The notes below the pieces were generated by a model, which was given only the letters and a program-made list of their open reading frames with translations, searched no databases and had not been told where the DNA came from. The position numbers and the translations under genes are program-made. From a virus (taxonomy: Duplodnaviria > Heunggongvirae > Uroviricota > Caudoviricetes): a stretch of 42,470 nt of DNA. This document shows positions 5,475 to 39,362 of this stretch, one piece after another (the first letter of the stretch is position 1; every line of letters starts with the position of its first letter). The stretch lies in the IMG/VR virus record IMGVR_UViG_2690316243_000004. One strand, given 5' to 3'.

Positions 5475-5686
5475 AACCCACCAGTCATAAAGCTTTAGGG
5501 TAAGTGGTGTGTAAATTTTAGCCCCATCATCTGTGTTTTTTTCATTGATTTCACCATGTTATAGTTTTATTTGTGAATTAAATCAATTATGGCGATGAAT
5601 TACAAGGGGTTAAATGCTGCCGCAGCATAGCGATATTGAAATAGCCTNGCATGGCATGATTTGCGCTTTTGGACGGGAGATTCAGC

Positions 5687-6274
5687 GTGCTGATTGGCTA
5701 TGTAAGGGTATCAACAAATGACCAGAATACAGACCTGCAACGAAACGCTCTTGTTTGTGCAGGATGTGAACAAATATTTGAAGATAAATTAAGCGGGACA
5801 AAGACAGACCGACCGGGATTAAAACGCGCTTTAAAGCGCCTTCAAAAAGGTGACACGCTGGTTGTCTGGAAACTGGATCGCCTCGGGCGAAGCATGAAAC
5901 ATCTGATTTCTCTCGTCGGGGAACTACGGGAGCGAGGAATTAATTTTCGCAGTCTGACCGACAGCATAGATACATCTTCTCCAATGGGGCGTTTTTTCTT
6001 CCACGTGATGGGTGCCCTGGCTGAAATGGAACGTGAATTAATTGTTGAACGTACACTGGCCGGACTGGCGGCAGCACGCGCACGGGGGCGCACAGGCGGA
6101 CGTCGACCGAAGCTGACAAAAGAACAGCATGAGCAAATAGCAAGGCTGATCAAAAACGGGCACGACAGAAAACAACTGGCAATAATTTACGGCATTGGTA
6201 TATCGACGATTTATCGTTACCACCCCGCAGGAGAATCAATCGGAACAATAGAGAAGAGTCAGGAAACAAAATAA
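5687..6274 (+). CDS. pin: Serine recombinase, DNA invertase of the Pin/Gin/Cin/Hin family
   Basis: From the GTG start the protein reads MLIGYVRVSTNDQNTDLQRNAL... with the catalytic serine region and a C-terminal helix-turn-helix (GISTIYRY); closely resembles E. coli prophage Pin as recalled. Confidence 0.9.
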   Translation: MLIGYVRVSTNDQNTDLQRNALVCAGCEQIFEDKLSGTKTDRPGLKRALKRLQKGDTLVVWKLDRLGRSMKHLISLVGELRERGINFRSLTDSIDTSSPMGRFFFHVMGALAEMERELIVERTLAGLAAARARGRTGGRRPKLTKEQHEQIARLIKNGHDRKQLAIIYGIGISTIYRYHPAGESIGTIEKSQETK

Positions 6275-6810: not shown

Positions 6811-9704
6811 TCAATCTTTATCGTAAAAACTGCCACGCCCGGCACGGGCGCGCCGTTCCATTTCTGCCCTGACCATTTCACCGACCAGTTTCGCCAGTTC
6901 GCGGGGATTCTGCGTAACAACGTTATGCAGATGAACATGAATTTCACCACCAAATCCGGAGGCAACAGGCTCCCGGTTACGGGAAGTTACAGGAACTGAT
7001 GCCACTGGAGAGCGTATGGCCTCCGCCACCGGGCGGGAGCTGGCCGCAACAACAGGGACCAGCGCCGGAGGCAGCGGAGCCGGGACCACGGGTGTGATAT
7101 TAATTGCGGGGGCAGGCTTACTGACCTGCGCAATCTTCCGCTCCTGCCACTCCCCACGAACAGCAAGTGCGCGGGGCAGGTTCTTAAAGACAATATCGCC
7201 GGGGCCAATGCGTTTTTTCGTCTCATCAACCAGCTTACCTGTGTTATCAGCAATTTTGCTGAGTCTGCGTAGCGTCCCGGTATTGCTGTCTGTGAGCGGT
7301 TTGTTGTCTTTGGGTTTATCACCTCCGGTGCCATTGCCATTTTCCACAGGCTTCGGCGGATTGATTTTCGCCAGGTCCCCCTGAAGCAAGGCAACCTTGT
7401 CCTGAAGAATGGCCGCACGCTGTGCGTCTTCGATTTTCTTGCGCGCCCTTTCCGCTTCATCCGGAAGGACGCCAAGTTTTTCAAGTATCCACGCCAGCGT
7501 ATCCAGTAGCATTTTTGCAGGTGTCAGAACAAGTTGTAACGCACCGCCAAGAACGTTACCGAATATCTCGCCAGCACTGGCACATTTATCCAGCGTTTCC
7601 TTGCTGGACTCCATCGGTGACAGCAGCGATTTAAACCAGTTAAAGACCTGAATAATCCCATCGCGCACGACATCAAAAACAGGGCCAAACCGTTCAAAGG
7701 TTTCGCGCAACGGGGTCAGCCTTTCCATAATCCCGCTGAACACCCCGGCAAAAAATGCCCTGATGGGATCCCAGTATTTCCAGATAAGAACGGCAGCTCC
7801 GGCAAGCGCAGCCACGATAAGACTAACCGGACTGAACAGCGCCCCGATAGCGCCACCAAGTAAAGAAACGGAACCCGTCACCATTCCCCATAATGCAGGC
7901 AGAACCCTGACAACATTCATTGATTCGGTCAGGAGAGAAAAACCGAGACGCAACGTAGCCAGCTTCCCGTGAAGCACCCCAATAACCAGAGACAACGAAC
8001 CAACCGTTGCTGTTGTCGCCAGCAGTGCGCCTCCCGCTATCAGTAACTGGCGCGTCAGTGCCGGGTGGGCCTGCGCCAGCGCCGTCACCTTTGAGACAAC
8101 CCGCGTGAGCCACTGCGTGACAGAACGCAGCGGACCGTCAACCAGATCACTGATGCGAATACGCAGACCTTCCCATGCACTGCCGAGTGATTTCAGGTTG
8201 CCATCAAGGTTATTGGCCATAACCTTTGCCGTGCGTTCTGCCTCACCGCGCGCGCCTTCAAGTTCTTTTCTCAGTTTGGCTAAGAAGCCGTCACCTGCCG
8301 CATCAACGAGGCCCATAAATGATGTGAAAGCCTCTTCTCCGGCAATGTCCTTAAAGAACGATACCCGGTCAACCTCCCCGTATTTGCGGGTGGCTTTATA
8401 GAGATCGGCCAGCACATTCTCCATCGGGCGCATTTTGCCTTTGGCGTCAGCAACTGACACCCCCAGCTCTTTCAGTGCTTCTGCCGCTGCCTTTGGCGGT
8501 GATGACAGATTGGCCAGGCTTTTACGCAACGCTGTACCTGCATCACTCCCCCTGATACCCATCTTCGCCAGCACGCCCGCCATCGCTGCGGCCTGCTCCA
8601 GCGATATTCCCAGCTTACCCGCCACCGGACCTGCATATTTCATGGTTTCGCCCAGTGCGCGAAGGTCAGTGTTGGTACGGGTAAACGCTGCGGTAAGTGT
8701 GTCACCGACCCGGTCCATCTGGTCAGCAGAGAGGCCGAACTGCGTCAGGATATTGGAACCAATATCCGCCGTCTCGCCGAGGTCCATACCGCCAGCCGTT
8801 GCCATGCTCAGCACGCCGGGAAGCGCAGCCTGAATGGCCTGCGGTGTGAAACCAGCCATTGCAAGAAATGCCTGTCCACTGGCGGCATCGCCTGCGGTGA
8901 ACTGCGTTTCAGAGCCAAGTTTTAACGCCTGCTCACGCAGCGCCTTAAACTGCGGGCTGTTTTTATCGATTCGCGTCAGTGCCTGAACACGGGACATCTC
9001 TTTCCCGAACCCGATAGCGGGCTGCAAAAAACGCCNNNNNNNNNNNNNNNNNNNNNNNNNNNNNNNNNNNNNNNNNNNNNNNNNNNNNNNNNNNNNNNNN
9101 NNNNNNNNNNNNNNNNNNNNNNNNNNNNNNNNNNNNNNNNNNNNNNNNNNNNNNNNNNNNNNNNNNNNNNNNNNNNNNNNNNNNNNNNNNNNNNNNNNNN
9201 NNNNNNNNNNNNNNNNNNNNNNNNNNNNNNNNNNNNNNNNNNNNNNNNNNNNNNNNNNNNNNNNNNNNNNNNNNNNNNNNNNNNNNNNNNNNNNNNNNNN
9301 NNNNNNNNNNNNNNNNNNNNNNNNNNNNNNNNNNNNNNNNNNNNNNNNNNNNNNNNNNNNNNNNNNNNNNNNNNNNNNNNNNNNNNNNNNNNNNNNNNNN
9401 NNNNNNNNNNNNNNNNNNNNNNNNNNNNNNNNNNNNNNNNNNNNNNNNNNNNNNNNNNNNNNNNNNNNNNNNNNNNNGGCGTCGTGCTTTCACGATGCCC
9501 GCATCCGCTTTACTGACAGCGTCACGGGCGCGCTCAAATGAACGCGCCTGACGCTCGAGATTTTTGATCGCCCCCTGCGTTCGCTGGATGGAGTCACCAA
9601 ACTGCCCCATCAGGCGGCGGGCGTTTTCGGCAGGGNNNNNNNNNNNNNNGCCGGGTCAGCCTGTCAACGGCGCTGAAAGCGACCCGGATATCAAGAGTCT
9701 TCAT
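6811..9704 (-). CDS. Tail tape measure protein (gpT-like), interrupted by assembly gaps
   Basis: Long alanine/glycine-rich, helix-rich protein. The listed 738 aa ORF continues through the N run to an ATG at 9704-9702 (MKTLDIRVAFSAVDRL...). Confidence 0.75.
9036..9477. other. Run of N (sequence gap) inside the tape measure gene; a second short N run is at 9636-9649
   Basis: Directly visible as n characters. Confidence 0.99.
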
Positions 9705-9909
9705 TGTCTGCATTCCCGCTGCGAAGTGCCGCCCGCTCACGCCAGCTAACCACTTCGCCGGGCGTCATCATGAAGATTTCGGCGGGCGACCAGTTAAAAA
9801 TGGCGGCAATATCCGCCACAAAGTCTTCTATGTGCTCAAAGCACACAACCGTGATCAGGCTTCCGTCGCCTGTTCGTTCTTCTCGCCAGAGTCCGCACCG
9901 CTCAAAAAA
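9691..9909 (-). CDS. E-prime extension, made as an E+E' fusion by -1 programmed frameshifting
   Basis: Minus strand reads gta aaT TTT TTG agc (heptamer at 9903-9909). The -1 frame then gives ERCGLWREERTGDG...NEDS, ending 14 bp inside the tape measure start. Confidence 0.6.
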   Translation of the reverse strand, partial: FFERCGLWREERTGDGSLITVVCFEHIEDFVADIAAIFNWSPAEIFMMTPGEVVSWRERAALRSGNADNEDS

Positions 9910-10220
9910 TTTACGGCAACCACACATAACTGAATAAAGTCACGGGATGCCATTTTTTTGATCGTCACTTCATCCAGTCGCGGTGATGTCACGCGTGACA
10001 GCAGCGTAAACATGGATTCCGCTTTCAAATTCAGCACATCAGACAGCGACAAATCTCGCAGAGATCCAGCCTGCTCAATAGCCCCGGTGATCTCCACATA
10101 CGTGATTTTTTCGCCGCCTCGCTCAATTGGTTGGGTAAGTTTTACGCCACGCTCACTGGTTTCTTTCACAGTGTCAGCAACGACCGTGTTTTCGGTATCG
10201 ATGTTTTTCGTCTCTTTCAT
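9855..10220 (-). CDS. Tail assembly chaperone gpE-like (zero-frame product)
   Basis: 121 aa ORF between the tail tube and tape measure genes; contains a T TTT TTG slippery heptamer near its 3' end. Confidence 0.7.
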   Translation of the reverse strand: MKETKNIDTENTVVADTVKETSERGVKLTQPIERGGEKITYVEITGAIEQAGSLRDLSLSDVLNLKAESMFTLLSRVTSPRLDEVTIKKMASRDFIQLCVVAVNFLSGADSGEKNEQATEA

Positions 10221-26063: not shown

Positions 26064-27815
26064 ATGATTCAGGACGCTTTTGTGCGCCAGCGTGCGCGGC
26101 AACTTTACTGGCAGGGTTATCCGCCCGCAGAAATATCACGTCTGATGGGAATAAACCCGAACACGATTTATGCGTGGAAAAAACGCGACCAGTGGGATGA
26201 AACGCCACCCGTGCAGCGTGTCACGCAGTCCATCGATGCGCGCCTCATCCAGCTTACTGAAAAACAGAATAAAACAGGTGGTGACTTTAAGGAAATAGAC
26301 CTGCTGACCCGGCAGCTTAAAAAACTGCATGATGGCCAGCCGGATGCGACGGCCACAGGAAAGAAAGGCCGGGCGAAAAAACTCAAAAATCATTTCACGC
26401 CGGAACAGATTGCCGCACTGCGGGAAAAAATCATCAGCAGGCTGGAGTGGCATCAGCGGGGCTGGTTTGACTCCCTGACGCTTTGCAGGGAAGCCGGGAT
26501 ACGTAACAGGATGATCCTGAAATCCCGACAGATTGGGGCGACCTGGTATTTTGCACAGGAAGCACTGCTGATGGCGCTGCGTGACGATGTGGCACAACCT
26601 TACCAGCGTAACCAGATTTTTTTGTCTGCGTCGCGTCGTCAGGCGTTCCAGTTTAAAAGCATTATTCAGAAGGCCGCGGCTGAAGTCGATGTGGAGCTGA
26701 AAGGGGGCGATAAAATCATCCTCTCCAACGGCGCAGAGATGCATTTTCTCGGCACTTCTGCTGCGACGGCGCAATCTTACACGGGCAATTTTTATTTTGA
26801 TGAATTTTTCTGGGTCAGTCGCTTTGCTGAACTGCGCAAGGTGGCTGGCGCTATGGCAACCCTCAGCGGACTGCGGCGCACCTGCTTCTCCACGCCATCC
26901 ACCGAAACGCACGAGGCATACGCCTACTGGAACGGCGACCGCTGGAACGAGAAAAAGGCCGCGCATAAACGCCAGCGTTTTTCTGTGGACTGGAAAACGC
27001 TGCATAACGGGCTTATCTGCCCTGACCGGACGTGGCGGCAAATTGTCACGCTGGAAGATGTGGTTAATCACGGCTGGAAACACACCGATATTGATGAAAT
27101 TCGTGATGAAAACACCGAAGACGAGTTCCGCAATCTCTATATGTGTGAGTTTGTCCGCGAAGGGGAATCGGCATTTAACCTGAATATCCTGATTGGCTGC
27201 GGTGTTGACGGATACGACGACTGGAAAGACTGGAAACCCTTTGCCCCCCGCCCGATGGGGAATCGTCCGGTATGGATTGGGTATGACGCAAACGGCAGCA
27301 GTGGTAACGGCGACAGCGGCGCTGTGTCCGTGGTGGTTCCTCCGGCTGTTCCTGGTGGTCGTTTCAGAACGGTGGAGACGCGACGCGTTCAGGGGCTGGA
27401 ATTTGAAGAGCAGGCCAGAGTTATTGAAGAGTTCACGTATCGCTACAACGTGGAACACATCGGCATTGATGCGACGGGCGGGCACGGGGATGCCGTCTAT
27501 CAGATAGTGAAACGGTTTTTTCCCGCCGCCATCCCTTACACCTTCACGCTGTCATCAAAACGGTCGCTGGTACTGAAAATGCTGCAAATAATGCGTGCCG
27601 GGCGGTGGGAATACGATCGCGCCGAACGCGAGCTGGTTGCGGCCTTTAACGCCGTGCGTAAGGTGAAAACACCGGGCGGTTTTATCACTTACGAAACGGA
27701 CCGCGCGAGGGGGATCAGCCACGGCGACCTTGCGTGGGCAACCATGCTTGCTGTCATTAACGAACCGATTGGCGGCGAAGGAGAAAACGAGCGTTTCACG
27801 GTTATGGAGTTCTGA
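26064..27815 (+). CDS. Terminase ATPase (large) subunit gpP-like
   Basis: 583 aa, divergent from O and followed directly by the portal gene, reading towards the presumed cos region. Confidence 0.85.
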   Translation: MIQDAFVRQRARQLYWQGYPPAEISRLMGINPNTIYAWKKRDQWDETPPVQRVTQSIDARLIQLTEKQNKTGGDFKEIDLLTRQLKKLHDGQPDATATGKKGRAKKLKNHFTPEQIAALREKIISRLEWHQRGWFDSLTLCREAGIRNRMILKSRQIGATWYFAQEALLMALRDDVAQPYQRNQIFLSASRRQAFQFKSIIQKAAAEVDVELKGGDKIILSNGAEMHFLGTSAATAQSYTGNFYFDEFFWVSRFAELRKVAGAMATLSGLRRTCFSTPSTETHEAYAYWNGDRWNEKKAAHKRQRFSVDWKTLHNGLICPDRTWRQIVTLEDVVNHGWKHTDIDEIRDENTEDEFRNLYMCEFVREGESAFNLNILIGCGVDGYDDWKDWKPFAPRPMGNRPVWIGYDANGSSGNGDSGAVSVVVPPAVPGGRFRTVETRRVQGLEFEEQARVIEEFTYRYNVEHIGIDATGGHGDAVYQIVKRFFPAAIPYTFTLSSKRSLVLKMLQIMRAGRWEYDRAERELVAAFNAVRKVKTPGGFITYETDRARGISHGDLAWATMLAVINEPIGGEGENERFTVMEF

Positions 27816-28861
27816 TGAGCAGAAAAAATAAAAAAGTGCGCATGAGTTCACGCATTGATCTCGCTGATGCGCTCAGGAAAGAATCGTCGCTCAGTGCATT
27901 CACATTTGATGGTCCTTACCGCCTGACCGGGCATGACCTGCTGGACAATATGTACTGTGCTGATAACGGGCGGTGGTATGAAACCCCGGTGGACTGGTAC
28001 GGTCTGGCAAGAGCTGCCCGGCAAACGTCCTGGCATCAGTCTGCGCTTTACTTTAAGCGCAATGTATTGCTCGGCTGCTATATTCCGCACCCGCTGCTTT
28101 CCCGGCAGGATTTCTCGGCGCTGGCGCTGGACTGGTTTGTGTTCGGTAACGCATTCCTTGAGCTTCGGAGCAATATGCTCGGCGAACCGCTTAAATTACG
28201 GCACGCCCTGGCGAAATACATGCGACGCGGAAGCGATCTTGAATCATGGTGGTATGTGCAGGATGGCAAGGATGCGTTTCAGTTTCGTCCTGGCAAAGTG
28301 TGCCACCTGATGAATCCGGATATTAACCAGGAAATCTACGGCATGCCGGAATATCTTGGCGCATTACTCTCGGCCAGCCTTTCTCATTCGGCGGACATGT
28401 TCAGAAAACTGTACTACGACAACGGATCCCACGCCGGGTGCATCATCTACATCGGTGCAGCGCAGGTAAACCGCGAAAGCATGGACTCCCTGAAAGAAAC
28501 GCTACAGGGGGCACGTGGTGGTGGTGCGTTTAAAAACGTGCTCATTCATGCGCCCAACGGGGGCAAAGAGGGGGTGCAAATTTTGCCGTTCCAGCAGATC
28601 ACCGCAAAGGATGAGTTCATGAATGTTAAGGCGGCATCCCGTGATGATGTGCTGGCTGCGCACCGCGTTCCGCCGCAACTGATGGGGGCGATGCCGGGCG
28701 AAAAAAGTGCGTTTGGTGATGTGGAGAAGGCCGCGCGGGTTTACGCAATTAACGAGCTGATGCCCGTCATGGAGGCCATGAAGCACATCAATGACTGGCT
28801 TGGCGAAGAGGTGATCCGCTTTAACCCTTACGCACTGTTAGACACCCAGCCCACATCCTGA
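27815..28861 (+). CDS. Portal (capsid vertex) protein gpQ-like
   Basis: 348 aa, start overlaps the terminase stop; size matches P2 Q. Confidence 0.85.
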   Translation: MSRKNKKVRMSSRIDLADALRKESSLSAFTFDGPYRLTGHDLLDNMYCADNGRWYETPVDWYGLARAARQTSWHQSALYFKRNVLLGCYIPHPLLSRQDFSALALDWFVFGNAFLELRSNMLGEPLKLRHALAKYMRRGSDLESWWYVQDGKDAFQFRPGKVCHLMNPDINQEIYGMPEYLGALLSASLSHSADMFRKLYYDNGSHAGCIIYIGAAQVNRESMDSLKETLQGARGGGAFKNVLIHAPNGGKEGVQILPFQQITAKDEFMNVKAASRDDVLAAHRVPPQLMGAMPGEKSAFGDVEKAARVYAINELMPVMEAMKHINDWLGEEVIRFNPYALLDTQPTS

Positions 28862-29352
28862 CGCGCTTCGCTTGTCTGCTGCTTCGCCGGGGCATAAAAA
28901 ATTTATGCCCCGACTCTCCAGCTCCTGTATCAGTCAGATAATTTCACGACGCTTTCCTGCTGATTGCCATCATCGACAGTCAGACTCTTACGCAATCCCA
29001 CCTCGTTGACTGCATATTCTCGCCGTCTCAGTGCGATTTTGACGGCCTTACCTTTCACCCCATCAAATCAAAAGCCCTCACGTCTTTTTCACGCTCAGCG
29101 TGAGAAATACAGCCATTCTGTTGTATCTCTGCGACATCGTTCAGGGAATGCTATTTACCCCCTGAAACGCGGGCTGTTCCCCCGTCACCTGCGCGCAGAA
29201 AAAACGCGTTTTTTTGTGCATGCACGGATCCTTGACGGATCCAGCCGCCACGCGGGCCGGAAGGGCAAAAAGTCGTTCAAAAAAATTGTGCAAATTTGTG
29301 CACTATTGTGCATTTATAAAATCAACTAAAAAACACCTAGTGTGACTTACCT
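28862..29352. promoter_or_regulatory. Non-coding region where P2-type genomes place cos; contains hairpins and phased TTGTGCA repeats
   Basis: No convincing ORF. Inverted repeats at 28891-28913 and 29086-29107, and three TTGTGCA motifs about 10.5 bp apart at 29288-29315. The 19-nt cos sequence itself was not identified. Confidence 0.3.
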
Positions 29353-29538
29353 CTACCACTCGATCGGCACGTAGTCATTAAGTTCCGGAGACCAATTGCA
29401 CTTTTCACATCTGTGTTTTCCATTCTGGCAGATACATAAACGATAACGGCCACAATGCGGGCACCCATTTTCACCATTATCATAATCACCGAGCGACCAT
29501 TCCTGCATAAGCAGCTCTTCTTCATCATCATTTAGCAT
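29353..29538 (-). CDS. Small cysteine-rich (zinc-binding type) protein, function unknown
   Basis: 61 aa with an acidic N-terminus and CPHCGRYRLCICQNGKHRCEKC; AAGGGGGA ribosome-binding site before the ATG; last gene of the cargo operon. Confidence 0.5.
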   Translation of the reverse strand: MLNDDEEELLMQEWSLGDYDNGENGCPHCGRYRLCICQNGKHRCEKCNWSPELNDYVPIEW

Positions 29539-29552
29539 TAATCCCCCTTGAG

Positions 29553-29792
29553 CTATTTACTCTTCTCGGCCCTCAAAATCATACGAGAACCATCATCCAG
29601 CTCCCAATTAATTTCACCGCCTTCTGCCATGACTAGATGCCAAACGAGTTGAGCGGCCTCGTTGGTTACATCGCGACCGCGATCATTTCCTACGCGGCGT
29701 TTTGTTCCGTCTCCTAAGTCACGCATTTTTGCCAATACGATGGTTTTTGATAGCGGTGAAAAACCAAGCTGTAGTCGTGCTGAATTACTCAC
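29553..29792 (-). CDS. Hypothetical protein, 79 aa
   Basis: GTG start overlapping the stop of the upstream gene (GTGA); no recognisable motif. Confidence 0.45.
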   Translation of the reverse strand: MSNSARLQLGFSPLSKTIVLAKMRDLGDGTKRRVGNDRGRDVTNEAAQLVWHLVMAEGGEINWELDDGSRMILRAEKSK

Positions 29793-30313
29793 TGGCTGCC
29801 CCCTTTGTACTGTGTTAACTCTTCCTGCTCCTGCATCATGCGATTGACCTGAACGCGTGTGCGTCGAACGGCAAAATTAAATTGAAACATGAGCCGGAAC
29901 ATTTCTGATGCTTCCGTGTGAGCATCACGGATAGGTGACAGGCGGTACAGTTCTGCCTCCGTAGCTTGTTGAATCAATGACAGATCAAATTGAAGTGCGG
30001 GTCTGGTACATTTTGCACATCTGGCAGCAAGCTCCGGTATTAGTCTCTTAACGAAGGTGTTTTGCACCGCTTTGTTGATTTGTGTCTGCATCCAAATCGC
30101 AAATTTCAGCGAACGCATAAGTTTGATAGCCTCGGGCAGCGGCAGATAGATCATGCTGGTAGATTTGGGTGGTTGGTGAACCATCTTCACGGATACGCGA
30201 TTTCGCAGCGTTCGGAAAATCGTGTTCCCAACAACAGCTTCTACGGATACAGGACAGGGAGCCAGACCAGCCCGCAGTGCTTCTTTCATTAGCATGTATT
30301 CGTATTTTTTCAT
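29789..30313 (-). CDS. Hypothetical protein, 174 aa
   Basis: GAGGAAAA ribosome-binding site before the ATG; no recognisable motif; stop-start coupled to the next gene. Confidence 0.5.
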   Translation of the reverse strand: MKKYEYMLMKEALRAGLAPCPVSVEAVVGNTIFRTLRNRVSVKMVHQPPKSTSMIYLPLPEAIKLMRSLKFAIWMQTQINKAVQNTFVKRLIPELAARCAKCTRPALQFDLSLIQQATEAELYRLSPIRDAHTEASEMFRLMFQFNFAVRRTRVQVNRMMQEQEELTQYKGGSQ

Positions 30314-30373
30314 CGTGTTTTCCTCGTGCGGGGCGACAGTGCACCCCGATAAAATTAAAAGCCGTCAAATTCG

Positions 30374-30685
30374 TCATTCAGGAAATAATGCCCGGATATT
30401 CCCTGCTATCTGACTGGTTATCTGTGCGGTTGGTACTGGCTGTGGCACGGGGCGTTCTGTCCTGGTTTGTGTCACCGATAACGCCTCATCGTCAGCCCAT
30501 GCAGCCAGTCGGTAAGCCTCTGCTGGATTCATTTTCAGAAGTGCCAGCCCGGCCAGAAAAGCCACGCGTTGGCCGCTTTTGCGGGCTTCTGGTGTAAGGC
30601 TGCCCAGCCAGGCGCATGCTTCGCTTTCGTTCTTGACGGCCGCAGGCTTCAGATAGAAACTTATCCGTCTGGTTGGTGTCGTCAT
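30374..30685 (-). CDS. ParR-like centromere-binding adaptor
   Basis: About 103 aa from the internal ATG preceded by AAGGAG. The segment SGQRVAFLAGLALLKMNPAEAYRLAAWA resembles the remembered plasmid R1 ParR core (RAALTAGLALYRQDP) and sits directly after the ParM-like gene. Confidence 0.5.
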   Translation of the reverse strand: MTTPTRRISFYLKPAAVKNESEACAWLGSLTPEARKSGQRVAFLAGLALLKMNPAEAYRLAAWADDEALSVTQTRTERPVPQPVPTAQITSQIAGNIRALFPE

Positions 30686-30689
30686 TGGT

Positions 30690-31649
30690 TTACTCCTTGT
30701 CCATTGCGTACAGCCCATTAACCAGAGCAAACTGTGGCACCCCGTCCGCGATGAAAGTCGCATTAACTCCGCAGGCTTCGCGGATAGCGGGTGCCACAAT
30801 CTCCGCCCCTCCACCGACAACCATCACCCGCCCGTAACCCGAAAAACCCGCCAGCGCGCGGATCACGCGTTGTTTCAGTGTTTCTTCCTTTTCACGAATA
30901 ACCGCCATCAGGCTGGCGTAATGCGCGTCATTGTGGATGTGCTGGCGCAGCCAGGCTTCATCATGGCGATGTTCGATAATGGTATTGGCGATGTGGTGAC
31001 TGGTGCGCATACCGTTAGTGGCCATCACCGACAGTACGGCATCGGCCATCAGAGAAACGCCTACGTGTGGATCGCAAAACACCTGGCTGATACCTGCCAG
31101 TTGCCCCTGAACCTTTGCCACATCCAGCGTGGTTCCGCCCAAATCCACAATCAGCAGGGATTCAAACGGACTCATGTCAGCCAGTGCCTTAAAGCCAGCC
31201 GGAATGGATTCAGGCATAACCCGCACGTTACGGATAGTGAATGCTTCGCCGTTCTGGTACTCCACCGGGCGCATAACGTTCGCTTTTTTGCGGTTGATGT
31301 TGGCCATGTCCGGCTGTGCGTTTGTGTCGAAATACTCGCTCAGTGGCAGGGTGACAACCACATCCACCTCCTGTGGCGTGATGCCTGATTTGACCAGCGC
31401 GTGATGAATGGCAATGACATTTACATCGCTGTACTGGTATTGCGTGTCGGTTGTCTGGACAAAGCGATCGCTGACCGGATCAAAACCATAGCGCACGCCA
31501 TCAAGCATGTAGTTCGCGGGCTGCATGCCACCGAACGGCGCAGACCATTCCGACTTGAAGCTGTTCGGGCTGATGGCGTTGCGGCGTTCGCCGTTCTCAG
31601 TCCATGCCAGCTTGATGTTGGTGGAGCCGTCGTCGATACAAATTTTCAT
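30690..31649 (-). CDS. ParM/StbA-family actin-like segregation ATPase
   Basis: 319 aa with IDDGSTNIKLAW, QYSDVNVIAIHHAL, VMPESIPAG, LLIVDLGGTTLDV, VMVVGGGAEIV and ALVNGLYAM, collinear with plasmid R1 ParM as recalled. Confidence 0.8.
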   Translation of the reverse strand: MKICIDDGSTNIKLAWTENGERRNAISPNSFKSEWSAPFGGMQPANYMLDGVRYGFDPVSDRFVQTTDTQYQYSDVNVIAIHHALVKSGITPQEVDVVVTLPLSEYFDTNAQPDMANINRKKANVMRPVEYQNGEAFTIRNVRVMPESIPAGFKALADMSPFESLLIVDLGGTTLDVAKVQGQLAGISQVFCDPHVGVSLMADAVLSVMATNGMRTSHHIANTIIEHRHDEAWLRQHIHNDAHYASLMAVIREKEETLKQRVIRALAGFSGYGRVMVVGGGAEIVAPAIREACGVNATFIADGVPQFALVNGLYAMDKE

Positions 31650-31679
31650 GTCGCTTTTCCTTATGTTGATTAATTAATC

Positions 31680-31795
31680 GTTTACGGGATTCTGAAATCC
31701 CGTTTTTGCCTGTTTTGTGCGCGCTTCATATATCGCTGCGCGTTTTTTGCTCATTTACGGGATTCGTGAGTCCCGTTTCTGTCTGTTTTTTGTTT
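31680..31795. repeat. Two copies of a ~20 bp imperfect palindrome upstream of the ParM-like gene (possible parC-like site or hairpins)
   Basis: acgggattctgaaatcccgt at about 31686-31705 and acgggattcgtgagtcccgt at about 31757-31776, each followed by a T-rich tract; the second lies inside the last codons of gene A. Confidence 0.35.
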
Positions 31796-34548
31796 CCACT
31801 GGTCAGGCCACCCCGCAGCAGGTCTGCTTTGCGGCGGGCGCGTTCAGTGGTTTCACTGATTCTCTGTGCGTGCTCTGCGTCGCGGATGGCGCGCAGCATG
31901 TCAGAAAGCACGGTAACGGGTGTTTTCATGGTGTTCTGGTCCTGCTGAAGTGTGGATGCCAGGCGTGCGGCGGCTTCAGGGTCTGATGCCCCCAGCTGTG
32001 TCAGATAGCTGGCGACCGGGTTATGGCGGATCTCCGTGCTGCTTACGCCATGATTACGGCTCAGGCGCTGCCAGAGCTGCGTGATTCGGCTGTCCGGGCG
32101 GGTATCCGGTTTGCGTACAATTTCAAATCCCTGCGGTGCAATGATGCTGCCGTCAACGTACAGACTGCCGCCCCGTAACAGGTGCTGCATCTGTTGTTCA
32201 CCGATATGCAGGCCGAGAGATTCAGCAGACTCCCGCCATTCTTTAGCGAGTAATTCGTGGTTATCAGGCAAAGGCCGCTGCTGTTTGCGGCTCTGTGTCC
32301 AGCTCTGCATTTCATCACTGCTGTTTTTTGCCTGTTTGTCACGAAGCGAACGCATCAGCGCCCGGCGTTCGTGCCGTTTCAGTGAGCGCATCCATTCATC
32401 CACATCAACGCCGTCAGGGAGCTGCGGCCACGGTGCTGGCCGTTCTTCCGGCTGTTCTGTCCCGTTGTTGTCCGTTTCCTGTACACGGGGACAGTTATTG
32501 CCACGAGTCCAAGGGGCGGCAGGGCCGCCCTGAAGGTCAAAACCATTTTCGCGGGCGCTGTCTTCCGCTTCCGGTTTGCGTCTTACCAGCTTCCAGTTAT
32601 CCGGATGCGTGCACACACGGGAGGATTCCCCGATGAGTGGTGACCAGATCCCGTAAATCTGTACGCTCTGTTCGCCGTAATCGTTCAGCTCATCGGCGAG
32701 GTCGTAGGCGGTGCGAATCAGGTAGTCTTTGCGTGGAACAAGTACGCCGCCCTGTTTCTCTATGTAGGTGGCAAAACATCCGGCATCAGCGGCGGCAAGA
32801 ACCGCATCCATTGCGTCATCCTTCAGCCGTTGCGGGCCTTCCGGGTTGCGTGCCATCTGGCTGGCAAGGCGGCGCAGTTCACGCCATACCTGGCGGGAGG
32901 GGATGCCAAAGAACTGGAACTGGCGGACCCGGTGAAGGCGCGCCCAGCCGATGGCGCGTTCCACGCTCTCGGCCATTGATTTTCCGGTTTCGTGGTCAAC
33001 GCGTGGCTTGCCCGTTTTCGGGTCGATGCCATCCACGGCGCGGCTGTCCAGGTTTTTCCCGATGTAGGTGGCGATGTAGCTGGTTGGCGTGCCTTTTGAG
33101 CCGTCTACATACTCCGCCTTAAAGCGCGGAGTTATGTCATCGCCCAGCTCGTGACGATCTTCCTGAATGGCAATATCGCGGGTGTGGGACACAATGGTGT
33201 CGATTTCTTCCGGATGAGCAAAGACCATCATATGCCAGTGCACGGTGCCGTCATGGTGAGGCTCCGCCGTGCGGATGCCATACCAGCGCAGGCCGTCGCG
33301 GTTCAGTTTTTTGCGGACCGTCGCAAAAAACGTGTTAACCAGGTAATCGCTGGAGTCGCGCATTGTGGCCCCGTTCCATTTGGGATTCGGATGACCGTTC
33401 TCCGTTGTGGCGTGGTATTTTGACGGGCAGGTGACAGTCAGAAACACCGCTTTGTCGCCACGGGCTTCGGCCAGAAGTTCCAGCCCCTTCATGGTGGCCA
33501 TCATTTCTGCCTTACGGTGAACCGGGTTACTTACTCCCGCGTAATACACCGTCTCGAGATCAATCGTGAACCCGTCTTCATTTTCCAGCATGAAACTTTT
33601 CAGGAAATCGCGTGTTTTCTCGCGCTGTGCGCGAAACTCGCTTAACGCGTCCTGGCTCAGATAGGGCGATGTTTTTCTGGAAACCAGACAGGCGGCGCGA
33701 AGTTGTTCTTCTCTCCACTCGCAACGTAACAGCCACAGTTTGCGTTTCCACCATTCCGCACAGGTCAGGCGAAGGATTGCGCCCGGCAGCAGTTCTGTGT
33801 CCGGTTCGTGCCTCCGGTCTTTGTCTGTTGTCAGTGCGTCATAATGCGGAGGCATGGCGTGTAAGTGTAACGCCATGCGGGCCAGCATCTGATACGCCTT
33901 CAGCGTTACATCCATGGTCAGCTCGCCATCAGTCGCGCCAAAACCATCGCAGAGTTTTTCGAAGGTGCTGCTGAACATCGCCGCCGTCATGGTGGCCAGC
34001 GTCTGTATCTGGTGTTTGTTGAGTTGCGGCAGGTAAAGCAAATCGTCCAGGCGTTCACGTCCGGCAAGGGAGCGATAACCCGGTGTCAGCCAGTGTCCGT
34101 CAGTGCGATCCAGACGTTCGAATATTTTGCGCAGGGTTCCGCGTGCATAGCGTTCCGCCTGCCAGCTCTTTTTGCCTTTCCGGCGATCGGCTTCCTGTTT
34201 TTTGCGCAGGAAGGAGAGGTGGCGAATAAGCGGATCGCGCAGATAGGACGGCAGCAGGCGCAGCGAGGCCATGGCTTCATCCACCGCGCCGCGTGCCTGT
34301 TTTCTGGCGTCTCCTGCCAGTGTGATGGTTTTGTCCTGTTTTTCCTGTGCGTCCAGGCTTTTATTAATCAGGTTGCCCAGTGGCGTGGCGGAGAACGCCG
34401 CATCAGCCATTTCCTGGCGGCGCTCGTTCTCTGCCCGGTGGGCATCCAGCCAGGAGGAAAGCGCGGATTCAGGAGCGGGGATCCCCGTTCCTTCACGCCC
34501 CACTGCGTGGCGCGGTTGTTGCCAGTCCCTGATGTACTCTGCCGTCAT
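31726..34548 (-). CDS. Replication initiation protein gpA-like (rolling-circle, HUH endonuclease type)
   Basis: 940 aa with HWHMMVF (His-hydrophobic-His) and YIATYIGK tyrosine motifs; longer than P2 gpA (~760 aa as recalled). Confidence 0.85.
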   Translation of the reverse strand: MTAEYIRDWQQPRHAVGREGTGIPAPESALSSWLDAHRAENERRQEMADAAFSATPLGNLINKSLDAQEKQDKTITLAGDARKQARGAVDEAMASLRLLPSYLRDPLIRHLSFLRKKQEADRRKGKKSWQAERYARGTLRKIFERLDRTDGHWLTPGYRSLAGRERLDDLLYLPQLNKHQIQTLATMTAAMFSSTFEKLCDGFGATDGELTMDVTLKAYQMLARMALHLHAMPPHYDALTTDKDRRHEPDTELLPGAILRLTCAEWWKRKLWLLRCEWREEQLRAACLVSRKTSPYLSQDALSEFRAQREKTRDFLKSFMLENEDGFTIDLETVYYAGVSNPVHRKAEMMATMKGLELLAEARGDKAVFLTVTCPSKYHATTENGHPNPKWNGATMRDSSDYLVNTFFATVRKKLNRDGLRWYGIRTAEPHHDGTVHWHMMVFAHPEEIDTIVSHTRDIAIQEDRHELGDDITPRFKAEYVDGSKGTPTSYIATYIGKNLDSRAVDGIDPKTGKPRVDHETGKSMAESVERAIGWARLHRVRQFQFFGIPSRQVWRELRRLASQMARNPEGPQRLKDDAMDAVLAAADAGCFATYIEKQGGVLVPRKDYLIRTAYDLADELNDYGEQSVQIYGIWSPLIGESSRVCTHPDNWKLVRRKPEAEDSARENGFDLQGGPAAPWTRGNNCPRVQETDNNGTEQPEERPAPWPQLPDGVDVDEWMRSLKRHERRALMRSLRDKQAKNSSDEMQSWTQSRKQQRPLPDNHELLAKEWRESAESLGLHIGEQQMQHLLRGGSLYVDGSIIAPQGFEIVRKPDTRPDSRITQLWQRLSRNHGVSSTEIRHNPVASYLTQLGASDPEAAARLASTLQQDQNTMKTPVTVLSDMLRAIRDAEHAQRISETTERARRKADLLRGGLTSGNKKQTETGLTNPVNEQKTRSDI

Positions 34549-36608: not shown

Positions 36609-36887
36609 TTATTTTGTCATCTGCACGTATTTCTCTGCGTTTCTGATGGTTTTCAGGAAAATTGCGAAGAGATTTACTTTGCGTTTTGTGTTTCTTCCTT
36701 CTTGAGTAACGGGAATTACCGATCTATCAGCCTGCCTTCTTACAGCGAGAATGCTTTGATTTGTGCGTTTCGCATAATCCTCTAGGCTTTCTTCAAGTAC
36801 CGGTAGCCCATGTTCATTACGGTATGGGTAGAACGCCGCCAAACGCTCAAAATCCGCTTGTTCGTATGTGTTAAGGACTTTTGCCAT
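36609..36887 (-). CDS. Cox/Apl-like excision and transcription control protein
   Basis: 92 aa, first gene of the early operon, divergent from the repressor. EDYAKRTNQSILAVRRQADRSVIPV resembles the P2 Cox helix-turn-helix region as recalled. Confidence 0.55.
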   Translation of the reverse strand: MAKVLNTYEQADFERLAAFYPYRNEHGLPVLEESLEDYAKRTNQSILAVRRQADRSVIPVTQEGRNTKRKVNLFAIFLKTIRNAEKYVQMTK

Positions 36888-36982
36888 GGTGTGATAACCT
36901 ATTCAATCTGGTGCTATTTGTGGCTCTTTGTAGCGTCAAGTGGTACTCAACTGATAACCAATATAGTATTCAGGTGCACACC
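36888..36982. promoter_or_regulatory. Immunity switch region: divergent early and repressor promoters with candidate operator repeats
   Basis: 95 bp between the divergent Cox-like and C-like genes; direct repeats TGATAACC at 36890-36897 and 36950-36957. Confidence 0.4.
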
Positions 36983-37294
36983 ATGTCAATAGAGATATCA
37001 AAGAAGCTAAAAGCAATTCGAGAATCTGAGGGGCTTAGTCAGGCAAAGTTCGCGGATTCAATAGGTATTGCGGTTGGTACGGTTAAGCAATACGAGACTG
37101 GTATTCGAGGTGTGGGAACGGAGGTTTTACTGAAAATCACAATGCACCCGGAATTTAAAAAATACACTACGTGGTTGATGAGTAACGAAACAAATGAGGC
37201 TGCTGGGCAGATCAGTCCTTCTCTCTCCCCTGATGGGCCAGAAAACACATCGTCTTCTCAAAAATCCCGCAAGACTGGCACACAGCCCGGCTAA
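36983..37294 (+). CDS. Immunity repressor (P2 C-like)
   Basis: From the internal ATG: MSIEISKKLKAIRESEGLSQAKFADSIGIAVGTVKQYETG... (helix-turn-helix), tail ...GQISPSL...SSQKSRKTG similar to P2 C as recalled; sits immediately upstream of int. Confidence 0.75.
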   Translation: MSIEISKKLKAIRESEGLSQAKFADSIGIAVGTVKQYETGIRGVGTEVLLKITMHPEFKKYTTWLMSNETNEAAGQISPSLSPDGPENTSSSQKSRKTGTQPG

Positions 37295-37343
37295 TCATGG
37301 AACGCTGGGGGCATGGTGGTCTTGTAACGCTGGGGCTTCACGA

Positions 37344-38321
37344 ATGAGCATAAAATCAATTCCGGGAGGGTATCTTCTTGACATGCGTCCTGAGGGGCGT
37401 AAAGGCAAACGCATTCGCAAAAAATTTAAAACGAAATCGGATGCAGTTTTATATGAGCGGTGGGTGCTGGCGCAACAGCATAACAATGAGTGGAAAGGAA
37501 ACTCCATTGATCGCCGTCCGCTGTCAGTGCTTATTGACTTGTGGTGGAAATACCACGGCCAGCTAATGAAGTCAGGGCATAACACGCGCCTTAAATTGCT
37601 GCGCTTGAGTGAGGCAATGGATGACCCGTGCGTGCATAAACTTAATACAACGATGCTCACCGAGCTACGTGTGTCCAGGATAGAGCAGGGGATACAGCCC
37701 AGCACCATAAATCGAGAGATTGGGGCGTTAAGCGCGATGTTTACCGCACTCATCTCATCCGGCCATTTTCTTAACGATAACCCCGTTCAAGGCCTTAAAG
37801 GAATGAAGGTTAACGAGCGTGAAATGGGATATCTGAGTAAGTCTGAATGTGTTCAGTTGCTGGATGCACTGGCTGAAAATCCCGATGAACGGCTGGCCGT
37901 CGAAATCCTTCTGTCGACCGGGGCGCGATGGGGCGAGGTAGCGGCACTGGAGCAGCGCCGTGTTCTTCATTGTCGAATCACTTTTTCAAAAACGAAGAAC
38001 AGCAAAAACCGTACCGTTCCTATTTCTGAAAGCCTGTTTGAAAAGATCAAAAAACGGGGCGGGAAACTGGTGTTTCCGACGCTGGATTATTCATTGGTTC
38101 GCGATGTCATCAAAACGGTCGCACCTGATGTTCCTGACGGCCAGGCTGTTCATGCGCTGCGCCACACCTTCGCCAGTCATTTCATGATGAACGGCGGCAA
38201 TATTCTGACGCTCCAGAAAATTCTGGGGCACGCAAAGATTCAGACAACGATGATTTATGCCCATCTTGCGCCGGATTACTTGCAGGATGCGGTGAGGTTT
38301 AATCCCTTGGGAGGAATGTAA
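37344..38321 (+). CDS. int: Tyrosine integrase, P2/186 family
   Basis: 325 aa from the ATG at 37344; C-terminal catalytic region HALRHTFASHFMMNGGNILTLQKILGHAKIQTTMIYAHL carries the conserved Arg/His/Tyr residues. Confidence 0.9.
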   Translation: MSIKSIPGGYLLDMRPEGRKGKRIRKKFKTKSDAVLYERWVLAQQHNNEWKGNSIDRRPLSVLIDLWWKYHGQLMKSGHNTRLKLLRLSEAMDDPCVHKLNTTMLTELRVSRIEQGIQPSTINREIGALSAMFTALISSGHFLNDNPVQGLKGMKVNEREMGYLSKSECVQLLDALAENPDERLAVEILLSTGARWGEVAALEQRRVLHCRITFSKTKNSKNRTVPISESLFEKIKKRGGKLVFPTLDYSLVRDVIKTVAPDVPDGQAVHALRHTFASHFMMNGGNILTLQKILGHAKIQTTMIYAHLAPDYLQDAVRFNPLGGM

Positions 38322-38323
38322 CT

Positions 38324-38824
38324 ATGGAAATAAAAAAACCTACAAAAAAAGAGTTATATGACTATTTACTATCGAAATATATAGAAGATAAATGCAAAGA
38401 AGAAGCTGATGAAATCAATAAGAAGTCGATGAGTCGTGTCAAAAAACATAAAGAGCGGCTGATGGAGATTACGCCAGAAATCTTCTTCCGTTTCTTGTCT
38501 GAGAAGGGGGTCTCCAGTGTCTGCCCTTCATGTGGATCGTCGCGATTATCTGTTCCAGAAAGTATGGATCTTTGCTGGGATAAAAATAAGAAACCAGAAA
38601 ATTTTAACAATCTACCCCTGGAGGAACAGAGTGAGTTAATTAAAGAGAACATAAAGCATTATGTATCTTATGCTTTTTTGGGTGATGTTAAGAGCATACC
38701 TGATATGCGCAAAACTTATTACACGCTGCATTGCCTGAATTGTGGTTACCTGAGCCTTTATCGTACGTCTGCGGTGCTGAAGTGGTTGGAGAAAGACAAA
38801 GCGCAGGATGGTGATAATGGGTAA
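38324..38824 (+). CDS. Hypothetical zinc-ribbon-like protein, AT-rich cargo gene
   Basis: 166 aa, starts 2 bp after the int stop with GGGAGGAA inside the int 3' end; lysine-rich N-terminus; CPSCGSS...HCLNCGY cysteine pairs; much AT-richer than the phage genes. Confidence 0.5.
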   Translation: MEIKKPTKKELYDYLLSKYIEDKCKEEADEINKKSMSRVKKHKERLMEITPEIFFRFLSEKGVSSVCPSCGSSRLSVPESMDLCWDKNKKPENFNNLPLEEQSELIKENIKHYVSYAFLGDVKSIPDMRKTYYTLHCLNCGYLSLYRTSAVLKWLEKDKAQDGDNG

Positions 38825-39362
38825 TGTAGCAAGAAATCTTTTCGGTAATTCAGCAGGTAGTGTGTCGCATTCTGAGCGTGATGTGCTTTATCATGGTGGC
38901 GATGGCGGCAGTAGTGGAGGCGGAATGTCAGATAAACTTGAAAGGCGAATTGAGCGGCTCGAAGGTGATTTATCGCTAACAAGAAACGACCTTGCGACGC
39001 TTGCTGAACGCACTACAAACCTCTCAACTAAAGCCGATGTTGGTGAGGTGAAAGGTGAACTCAAAGCAGACATAGCACATCTGAAAGGTGATCTTGAATG
39101 CGATATTGCGAATCTGAAAGGTGAGCTTAAATCTGATACAGCTAACCTGAAAGAGCAGCTCAAATCAGACATTAACAGCCTGAAGGGTGAGCTTACCGAA
39201 GCGATGGATAAACGCTTTGACAAGATTATGGATGAGATGAATCGGCGGTTTGACAAGGTTGATGATAATACGAAGTGGCGTTGGAGTGGCATTATTGTGC
39301 CAGTGTGCACAACCATTTTCACAGCGGCGGTTGCTGTATTTGTTGCTAAATTTGTTGGCTGA
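38808..39362 (+). CDS. Hypothetical coiled-coil protein with C-terminal transmembrane anchor
   Basis: 184 aa overlapping the upstream gene. Glycine-rich N-terminus, four 11-residue repeats (DIAHLKGDLEC / DIANLKGELKS / DTANLKEQLKS / DINSLKGELTE), then WSGIIVPVCTTIFTAAVAVFVAKFVG. Confidence 0.5.
   Translation: MVIMGNVARNLFGNSAGSVSHSERDVLYHGGDGGSSGGGMSDKLERRIERLEGDLSLTRNDLATLAERTTNLSTKADVGEVKGELKADIAHLKGDLECDIANLKGELKSDTANLKEQLKSDINSLKGELTEAMDKRFDKIMDEMNRRFDKVDDNTKWRWSGIIVPVCTTIFTAAVAVFVAKFVG

Follow-up and report, generated by a model that had tools for sequence, protein, structure and literature searches.

Introduction

The closest described counterparts of the genes treated here are the type II partition systems of low-copy plasmids, in particular ParMRC (parA/stb) of R1 and R100, in which the actin-like ATPase ParM and the adaptor ParR are encoded in this order with repeats upstream. 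In R1, the centromere parC comprises ten 11-bp iterons flanking the promoter. In this study, we analysed a stretch of 42,470 nt (IMG/VR record IMGVR_UViG_2690316243_000004; hereafter the window, meaning the whole stretch), which is an integrated P88-like (Xuanwuvirus, Peduoviridae) prophage and carries, in the interval 29353–31795 behind the replication gene gpA, a parM–parR pair (ParMR) and three small genes. Judging from sequence comparisons, ParMR is not cargo but belongs to the conserved replication genes shared by P88-type phages and related temperate phages of the P2-like kind.

By analogy, the systems closest to ParMR in its probable role appear to be SrpMRC and AlpAC. SrpMRC stabilises R391, an integrative and conjugative element, in its excised, rolling-circle-replicating form, and four short repeats are enough for this ParM-type system to work (Carraro et al. 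2015, PMC4489591). As in the case of the window, an integrating element with a transient rolling-circle circular form carries a ParM-type partition system. Nevertheless, the SXT/R391 elements are not phages, and SrpM and SrpR are distantly related to ParMR, SrpR not being ParR-like, whereas ParMR of the window is canonical. AlpAC is encoded by the integrated prophage CGP3 of Corynebacterium glutamicum. It pairs an early-induced actin-like protein with an adaptor that binds DNA upstream of the operon, and without the two the excised phage circle does not replicate efficiently (Donovan et al. 2015, PMC4446434). It belongs to another actin-like family and to a Gram-positive host, and AlpA falls outside PF10784; the likeness to ParMR noted here is one of description.

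In P2-like phages, the interval between gpA and the portal gene gpQ is a known hotspot that houses defence systems, as the earlier reading of the locus from which we started (the original prediction) had rightly stated (Rousset et al. 2022, PMC9122126). That survey, covering 18,150 gpA–gpQ loci, ascribed a putative plasmid partitioning system to roughly one in four P2-like phages, and one entry of its Table S5 ('StbA + Plasmid_stab_B + hypothetical (WP_000759755) + Ead_Ea22') corresponds to ParMR plus a homologue of the third gene of our interval, ORF174 (PMC9122126). The partition module is common and previously reported, and its detection in the window is real and mostly ordinary. Our analysis adds a hotspot border moved to after parR, evidence for gpA–ParMR as an ancient replication module, a specific candidate centromere, and a case for a transient extrachromosomal role over plasmid lysogeny.

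ParM and ParR of the window

The genes of the interval, including three open reading frames (ORFs) named after their lengths in amino acids, and the gene preceding them are as follows.

31726–34548, minus strand: gpA, replication endonuclease, 940 aa (Phage_GPA, E = 6.6e-131)
30690–31649, minus strand: parM, actin-like segregation ATPase, 319 aa (StbA_N, E = 2.7e-82; ParM C-domain, E = 1.3e-68)
30374–30685, minus strand: parR/stbB, adaptor, 103 aa (PF10784, E = 5e-23; phrog_2515, E = 7.1e-56)
29789–30313, minus strand: ORF174, orphan-like cargo gene, present in 11 of 61 slots (see below)
29553–29792, minus strand: ORF79, small protein of the DUF7446 family (PF24233, E = 9.7e-17; phrog_1578), with a GTG start overlapping the ORF174 stop
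29353–29538, minus strand: ORF61, small cysteine-rich protein with a CxxC...CxxC pattern (phrog_24897, E = 2.6e-46)

The gene content of 29353–31795 far exceeds chance. On the minus strand, gpA is followed by ParM, ParR, ORF174, ORF79 and ORF61, and then by a terminator and cos; each of the five genes behind gpA is preceded by a ribosome-binding site or a GTGA stop-start overlap, as read from the sequence. The original prediction had described five minus-strand genes at these positions, with gpA ending at 31726, as a tight operon between gpA and the cos/portal region led by ParM and ParR. We confirmed the coordinates, the gene order and signals agree with an operon, and both assignments were borne out by Pfam and PHROG matches and by the sequences of R1 ParM structures.

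Residues 2–316 of ParM align with the R1 ParM structure sequences (1MWK; E = 8.5e-93, ~50% identity), that is, end to end and across the same two Pfam domains. The nucleotide-binding motifs are intact relative to R1 ParM, with DDGSTNIK, PESIPAG, DLGGTTLD and GGGAE covering phosphate binding and adenosine. The parM gene is separated from gpA by 76 bp, and its stop codon from the parR ATG by 4 nt. The mechanically listed ORF of parR is longer, with a TTG start at 30820; because the PF10784 profile and phrog_2515 (residues 46–148) both begin at residue 46 of the long ORF, the true start is the ATG at 30685.

ParR belongs to the StbB family (PF10784), as in R1 and R100. An N-terminal strand of the ribbon-helix-helix type is joined by a hypervariable linker to the C-terminal tail, N..(L/F)FP. 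In the strand, R6, S9, F10, Y11 and P14 are invariant across the phage lineages and a plasmid homologue. The tail, a candidate ParM-binding peptide, is invariant in the phage alleles, in four other genera and in one plasmid ParR, where it reads N..LFP. A sequence search for solved structures matching ParR gave none at E ≤ 1. ParM is at most 52% and ParR ~20–25% identical to plasmid counterparts.

Two ParR allele classes, 90–100% and ~52% identical to the window copy, occur beside ParMs that are 99–100% identical (loci L006–L085). Constant parts are the N-terminal 18 residues and the NI(R/Q)A(L/F)FPE tail, and the hypervariable linker spans approximately residues 65–92. Nucleotide diversity is ~0.02 in parM versus 0.14–0.24 in parR.

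Conservation of the gpA–ParM–ParR block

With ParM as a query, 80 IMG/VR contigs were recovered, and gpA, ParM and ParR were adjacent in all 80 loci, i.e., in every contig extending far enough. Among 5426 complete Escherichia coli genomes, parM was present in 1303 (24%), nearly all copies being 95–99.7% identical at the DNA level, and full-length intact copies were found in 1279 genomes. About a quarter of E. coli genomes hold a plasmid-type actin segregation module inside an integrated P2-like prophage. The original prediction had called the pair unexpected in such a prophage, which this frequency, as well as the previous report (PMC9122126), contradicts. The ratio of non-synonymous to synonymous polymorphism (pN/pS) was 0.051 for parM (70 distinct copies, picked by ParM similarity), 0.16–0.36 for parR and 0.22 for the C-terminus of gpA, indicating strong purifying selection on parM. 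Some E. coli genomes carry up to three parM copies, that is, several P88-type prophages per cell, in which co-induced relatives sharing the DNA-contact strand of ParR may interfere with each other's partition.

The next-closest ParMs in a collection of 5.8 billion proteins (54–63% identity) are from Hafnia, Plesiomonas, Serratia and Enterobacter. All four are encoded by P2-like prophages, where a Phage_GPA gene lies on one side and the portal and terminase genes on the other, with a PF10784 ParR adjoining. As plasmid ParMs do not exceed 52% identity to the window ParM, ParMR represents an old phage lineage, not a recent capture.

The head genes, on the other hand, vary. In nine of the 80 contigs, gpA, ParR and a 99% identical ParM are joined to a portal and a large terminase that are only 30–35% identical to those of the window, albeit with P2-type domains retained. 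The same block being joined to divergent portal and terminase genes, we conclude that gpA–ParM–ParR moves as a replication module; gpA–ParMR, as far as its distribution tells, is an ancient module common to several genera and head-gene lineages. The nine divergent-head loci (L026, L037, L040, L043, L046, L053, L057, L067 and L084; e.g., L026:6276–10158) have an Ogr/Delta zinc-finger gene and an Rrf2-type regulator between the ParMR block and the portal/terminase genes. The head module of L026 had no megablast match in 50,697 isolated phage records.

The original prediction had placed all five genes in a variable cargo slot. This holds for ORF174, ORF79 and ORF61, which lie in a slot with at least 29 architectures in 61 loci, and fails for ParMR, which is invariant beside gpA in all the above loci and in the four other genera. 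Comparison of relatives showed ParM and ParR to be ordinary conserved genes within this phage lineage, an outcome that the prediction itself had listed as speaking against it.

Paired repeats upstream of parM

A pair of 42-nt repeats that share 81% identity and lie 73 bp apart is located 5' of parM.

31678–31719, no strand assigned: proximal 42-nt repeat, candidate parC half, with a palindrome at 31684–31703, in the gpA–parM spacer, 35–54 nt upstream of the parM ATG
31751–31792, no strand assigned: distal 42-nt repeat, candidate parC half, with the palindrome ACGGGAyTC..GAgTCCCGT at 31757–31776, inside the last gpA codons

Each repeat holds a 20-bp palindrome, ACGGGAyTy....rAATCCCGT, a pattern found at these two sites in the whole window versus 0.02 expected. 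The palindromes are kept in all related loci and with both ParR allele classes. A link between ParR allele class and palindrome sequence was considered and rejected, as the same sites stand beside both classes.

In each of the five lineages, the ~150 bp preceding parM contain paired repeats or palindromes. In Plesiomonas, two 26-nt GCGGGACAACA... repeats occupy the same two positions, 72 bp apart, and keep the GCGGGACAACA direct-repeat core with neither a stable hairpin nor a terminator call. Hafnia has two GGGAT..ATCCC-type elements ~77 bp apart despite a different upstream gene. Serratia and Enterobacter have inverted arms of 14–20 nt, 26–28 nt apart, in a 150-bp spacer, and in Enterobacter two additional genes lie between gpA and parM. 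Since the paired element is kept in other genera whatever gene is upstream, it travels with parM, not with gpA, and this agrees with the usual position of parC. The 42-nt repeats may thus be the centromere, and parM, parR and the repeat pair would together make a complete type II (ParMRC-like) module in which the centromere is a candidate only. For the palindromes, a reading as antisense terminators is equally possible, and the two functions may coincide.

The parC region of a plasmid in our set (L087) shows T-rich iterons with no clear relation to the phage repeats. Three TGCACAA repeats at 29282–29312 were also considered as a centromere and set aside, as they overlap the operon terminator within the cos-proximal block, ~2.3 kb from parM.

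Early operon and the proposed role of ParMR

Consensus scans delimit the transcription unit to which ParMR probably belongs.

36960–36989, minus strand: Pe-like early promoter, TTGACA-18-TATATT, at the head of the leftward early operon (11 of 12 consensus positions; consensus match only)
29288–29303, minus strand: operon terminator, hairpin GTGCACAAATTTGCAC followed by a T-run just past ORF61, at the conserved end of the variable slot (terminator scan)

The Pe-like promoter is flanked by a helix-turn-helix repressor gene (36881–37294, plus strand) and the first early gene, and all genes identified from there through ORF61 are on the minus strand, in the same direction. Neither a promoter (sigma-70 match) nor a sense-strand terminator was detected between gpA and parM in the consensus scan. 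The five genes are thus probably the tail end of the early replication operon. In this respect the window differs from R1 and R100, as the module sits in the early operon of an integrating P2-like phage with no promoter of its own detected, and, rather than being carried by a low-copy plasmid, the prophage is integrated beside the host gene btuC.

As ParMR has no detectable promoter of its own and directly follows gpA in the operon headed by the Pe-like promoter, it would be made while the phage genome is extrachromosomal and replicating. In P2, rolling-circle replication by gpA yields monomeric circles, the packaging substrate, as part of the lytic programme. We infer, with a probability of roughly 55%, that ParMR is co-transcribed with the early operon and that, upon infection or induction, it acts on the extrachromosomal circles of the phage by segregating or positioning them, the two 42-nt repeats being its candidate centromere. 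ParMR would be silent in the repressed, integrated state and expressed when the immunity repressor is absent, upon infection or induction. ParR dimers would then bind the repeats on the phage circles and capture ParM filaments by their C-terminal tails, and the growing filaments would push sister circles apart. The monomeric circles generated by gpA would in this manner spread through the cell, and both daughter cells would get a copy ahead of integration or lysis.

A fuller version, which we offer tentatively and with more doubt than trust, makes ParMRC of P88-type phages a machine dedicated to positioning the viral genome while it replicates by rolling circle. Its centromere would be a minimal one of two sites, maybe doubling as an antisense terminator pair, and ParM filaments would disperse or partition monomeric circles. 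The benefit would be more frequent lysogenisation, a larger burst or better survival of the element when induction is abortive; the module would be inherited with the gpA cassette and exchanged between phages with unrelated head genes. Should this version be true, it would give the integrating tailed coliphages their first demonstrated example of a working actin-like segregation system.

Several points weigh against the positioning role. Phage P2 itself does well without such a module. The candidate centromere has just two sites versus the ten iterons of R1. Both palindromes score as intrinsic terminators on the plus (antisense) strand, and antisense terminator-like hairpins of different sequences also occur upstream of parM in Serratia and Enterobacter. 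Natural variants of the palindromes showed no compensatory changes and no consistent strand preference, the wobble pairs favouring the sense strand at the proximal site and the antisense strand at the distal site. The choice of parM copies by ParM similarity lowers pN, the timing of expression is deduced from consensus scans, and we found no functional study of ParMR in P88-type or P2-like phages in the literature.

Alternatively, ParMR may sustain a stable low-copy plasmid prophage, i.e., episomal lysogeny as in P1 or D6, as suggested by Rousset et al. (PMC9122126). That ParMR is a complete plasmid-type partition module fits well with this possibility. Among the 50,697 isolated-phage records, ParM homologues were confined to Xuanwuvirus members and phage D6, a P1-like plasmid prophage, whose record shows a 91-kb genome with an StbA-type gene (ParM identity, 48%). 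Furthermore, a complete P88-like genome of 34,461 bp (NZ_CP148288.1, L096) from an E. coli of a cat was deposited as a circular 'plasmid'. It carries int, C, cox, gpA, ParM, ParR, head and tail genes, ogr, hok and a com/methyltransferase pair, and may be either the phage caught replicating after excision or a rare case of episomal maintenance. Nevertheless, 1441 of the 1443 parM placements in the complete E. coli genomes are chromosomal and two are on plasmids, and, among 72,556 plasmid records, parM was found in only seven, mostly very large ones. These phages encode an integrase, and the window copy is integrated. The position of parMR in an early operon that the immunity repressor should silence does not suit a lysogenic plasmid either, nor does rolling-circle replication of the gpA type, which belongs to the lytic programme in established P2 biology. 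We therefore regard plasmid-like lysogeny as unlikely. The choice between it and transient partition of phage circles is the functional question posed by the module, and P88 is inducible and genetically manipulable.

The main function of ParR and the repeats could instead be exclusion, incompatibility or regulation: for example, they would mis-partition the circles of rival P88-like phages or IncF-type plasmids, or the palindromes would simply be antisense terminators that protect gpA against transcription coming in from the cos-side cargo. The terminator scores and their recurrence in Serratia and Enterobacter point in this direction, as do the genomes with up to three parM copies and the two ParR allele classes. 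The Plesiomonas repeats, however, lack a stable hairpin and a terminator call and keep their direct-repeat core. As the DNA-contact strand of ParR is invariant over the alleles, these define no specificity groups, and plasmid ParRs are only ~20–25% identical. An exclusion role, in addition, leaves the strong selection on the ParM ATPase unexplained, and we consider this explanation quite improbable.

The original prediction also raised the possibility that the five genes form one ATPase-led defence or addiction module travelling as a unit in the hotspot. Defence systems do reside in the gpA–gpQ interval, and the slots of relatives carry AbiL, Iet, RmrA-like, PDC-M04A, Doc/Phd-like and YafO cassettes. 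The five genes, however, do not co-vary: their exact set occurred in three of the 80 IMG/VR loci, ParMR being constant while ORF174, ORF79 and ORF61 are swapped independently of each other. PADLOC gave zero matches for the five proteins at E ≤ 0.1, and ParM is a canonical partition ATPase, about half identical to that of R1. All five genes are sense in the early operon with no own promoter, whereas old/tin of P2 are antisense and have a promoter, and several defence-like cassettes of relatives, but not every one, run antisense too. A single defence module is thus highly unlikely.

Lastly, ParMR as an inactive relic of a plasmid–phage fusion, for which the apparent dispensability of the module, lacking in P2, 186 and other relatives, might speak, deserves next to no credence in view of the low pN/pS of parM, the 1279 genomes with intact full-length copies, the same position in five genera at 54–63% ParM identity, and the intact motifs of both proteins.

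The variable slot and the three cargo genes

We defined the slot as the DNA from the parR stop to the conserved cos-proximal block and extracted it from 61 loci, in which it was 535–3713 bp long and comprised 45 ORF clusters in at least 29 architectures. The true hotspot begins downstream of parR and ends at the operon terminator, and the corrected map is useful for mining the gpA–gpQ hotspot and for annotating these prophages. The block following the slot, 28862–29314, is 95–99% identical in more than 1200 genomes. It contains the three TGCACAA repeats, spaced by 10–11 bp, which overlap the terminator hairpin ~30–50 bp from the putative cos and may be binding sites for terminase or another protein.

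Slots contain two types of genes. The first comprises small genes on the sense strand (ead/Ea22-like, ClpX-type zinc finger, ORF174 and DUF7446), and the second larger cassettes in either orientation, some of which match defence models. PADLOC matches in the slots of relatives were AbiLi/AbiLii, IetA (beside an S8 peptidase), RmrA-type and PDC-M04A, and Doc/Phd-like and YafO genes were also present. AbiL, PDC-M04A and the Doc/Phd-like genes are antisense to the operon, and Iet, the RmrA-like genes and YafO are on the sense strand. In the defence-like slots (L016/L042/L074, L061/L066/L071, L052/L058 and L080), the RmrA-like protein is accompanied by a PIN-like protein, and PDC-M04A is DUF3800-like. 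DUF4760-like membrane proteins and a 176-aa membrane protein in relatives' slots had no PADLOC match.

ORF174, ORF79 and ORF61 are all sense-strand slot genes of the co-transcribed type. As a trio they are found in three of the 80 viral contigs only, and as one block in none of the 5426 complete E. coli genomes. ORF174 has varying partners, being found with Ea22-like genes, with YafO, or behind the ClpX zinc-finger gene, and E. coli FDAARGOS_943 has ORF79 and ORF61 without ORF174. In P88, gp17 and gp18 correspond to ParM (99.7% identical to gp17) and ParR within the same gpA–ParM–ParR–slot–cos–portal layout, but the slot holds a ClpX-type zinc finger and small ORFs in place of ORF174, DUF7446 and ORF61. 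In the gpA–cos interval of P2, Orf91 is sense-oriented and overlaps the gpA stop, resembling the co-transcribed genes of the window, whereas old and tin are antisense lysogenic-conversion exclusion genes with their own promoter near cos, a layout absent from the window slot.

ORF174 had no Pfam, PHROG or PADLOC match. Its family is tiny (eight clusters at 90% identity in the 5.8 billion proteins), and an exhaustive profile search gave three representatives in 1.84 billion proteins and no remote family. The AlphaFold2 model, from a five-sequence alignment, had a mean predicted local distance difference test score (pLDDT) of 49.9, too poor for a fold search; that of ORF79 (18 sequences) was likewise weak, at 58.6. 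DUF7446, to which ORF79 belongs, comprises 372 clusters across Enterobacterales with ~80% identity between genera, and we found no papers on it in the literature. In the P22-like Salmonella phage 29485, its gene belongs to the early-left 'ea' region and has the erf/anti-RecBCD genes on one side and EaD/EaA on the other. ORF61 matched Zn_ribbon weakly (E = 0.0053, below the cutoff), and an identical (100%) copy is present yet unannotated in FDAARGOS_943. By analogy, ORF174, ORF79 and ORF61 are probably early-expressed accessory genes resembling the lambdoid 'ea' type, and represent no recognised defence system. It is speculation that they take part in host takeover or counter-defence.

Surrounding prophage

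Two further features bound the interval on the cos side.

29236–29256, no strand assigned: putative cos cleavage region, proposed from the sequence CGCGTGGCGG..., which resembles the first 10 nt of P2 cosR, GGCGAGGCGG
27815–28861, plus strand: portal protein, gpQ homologue, annotated as portal in 100% identical relatives

The region shares 94–97.5% identity with P88 and related phages, whose tail genes match the left part of the window, and the genes of the interval are 94–100% identical to annotated genes of P88-type phages. The order gpA–ParM–ParR–cos–portal–terminase is near-identical to that of P88, in keeping with a Xuanwuvirus backbone. The gpA protein is only 30% identical to that of P2 and has a C-terminal extension of ~140 aa. 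The nick position of the P2 origin, placed by alignment, falls near 32500, distant from the 42-nt repeats.

A tyrosine integrase is encoded at 37194–38321, ~1.2 kb from btuC. In the gap between the two (38324–39362) are an ORF of 166 aa with a weak Zn-ribbon match and a coiled-coil-looking ORF of 184 aa, neither with a confident family; these may be cargo on the att side or remnants of the integration target. In the tail-gene region, an AT-rich island at 9001–10000 (GC content of 0.31 versus ~0.53 on either side) around a 215-aa ORF (8963–9610) has the appearance of a moron or other foreign insertion. Amid the tail-fibre genes, the window encodes a serine recombinase/DNA invertase (5669–6274), annotated in P88 as well, which suggests invertible switching of tail fibres by analogy with Mu or P1.

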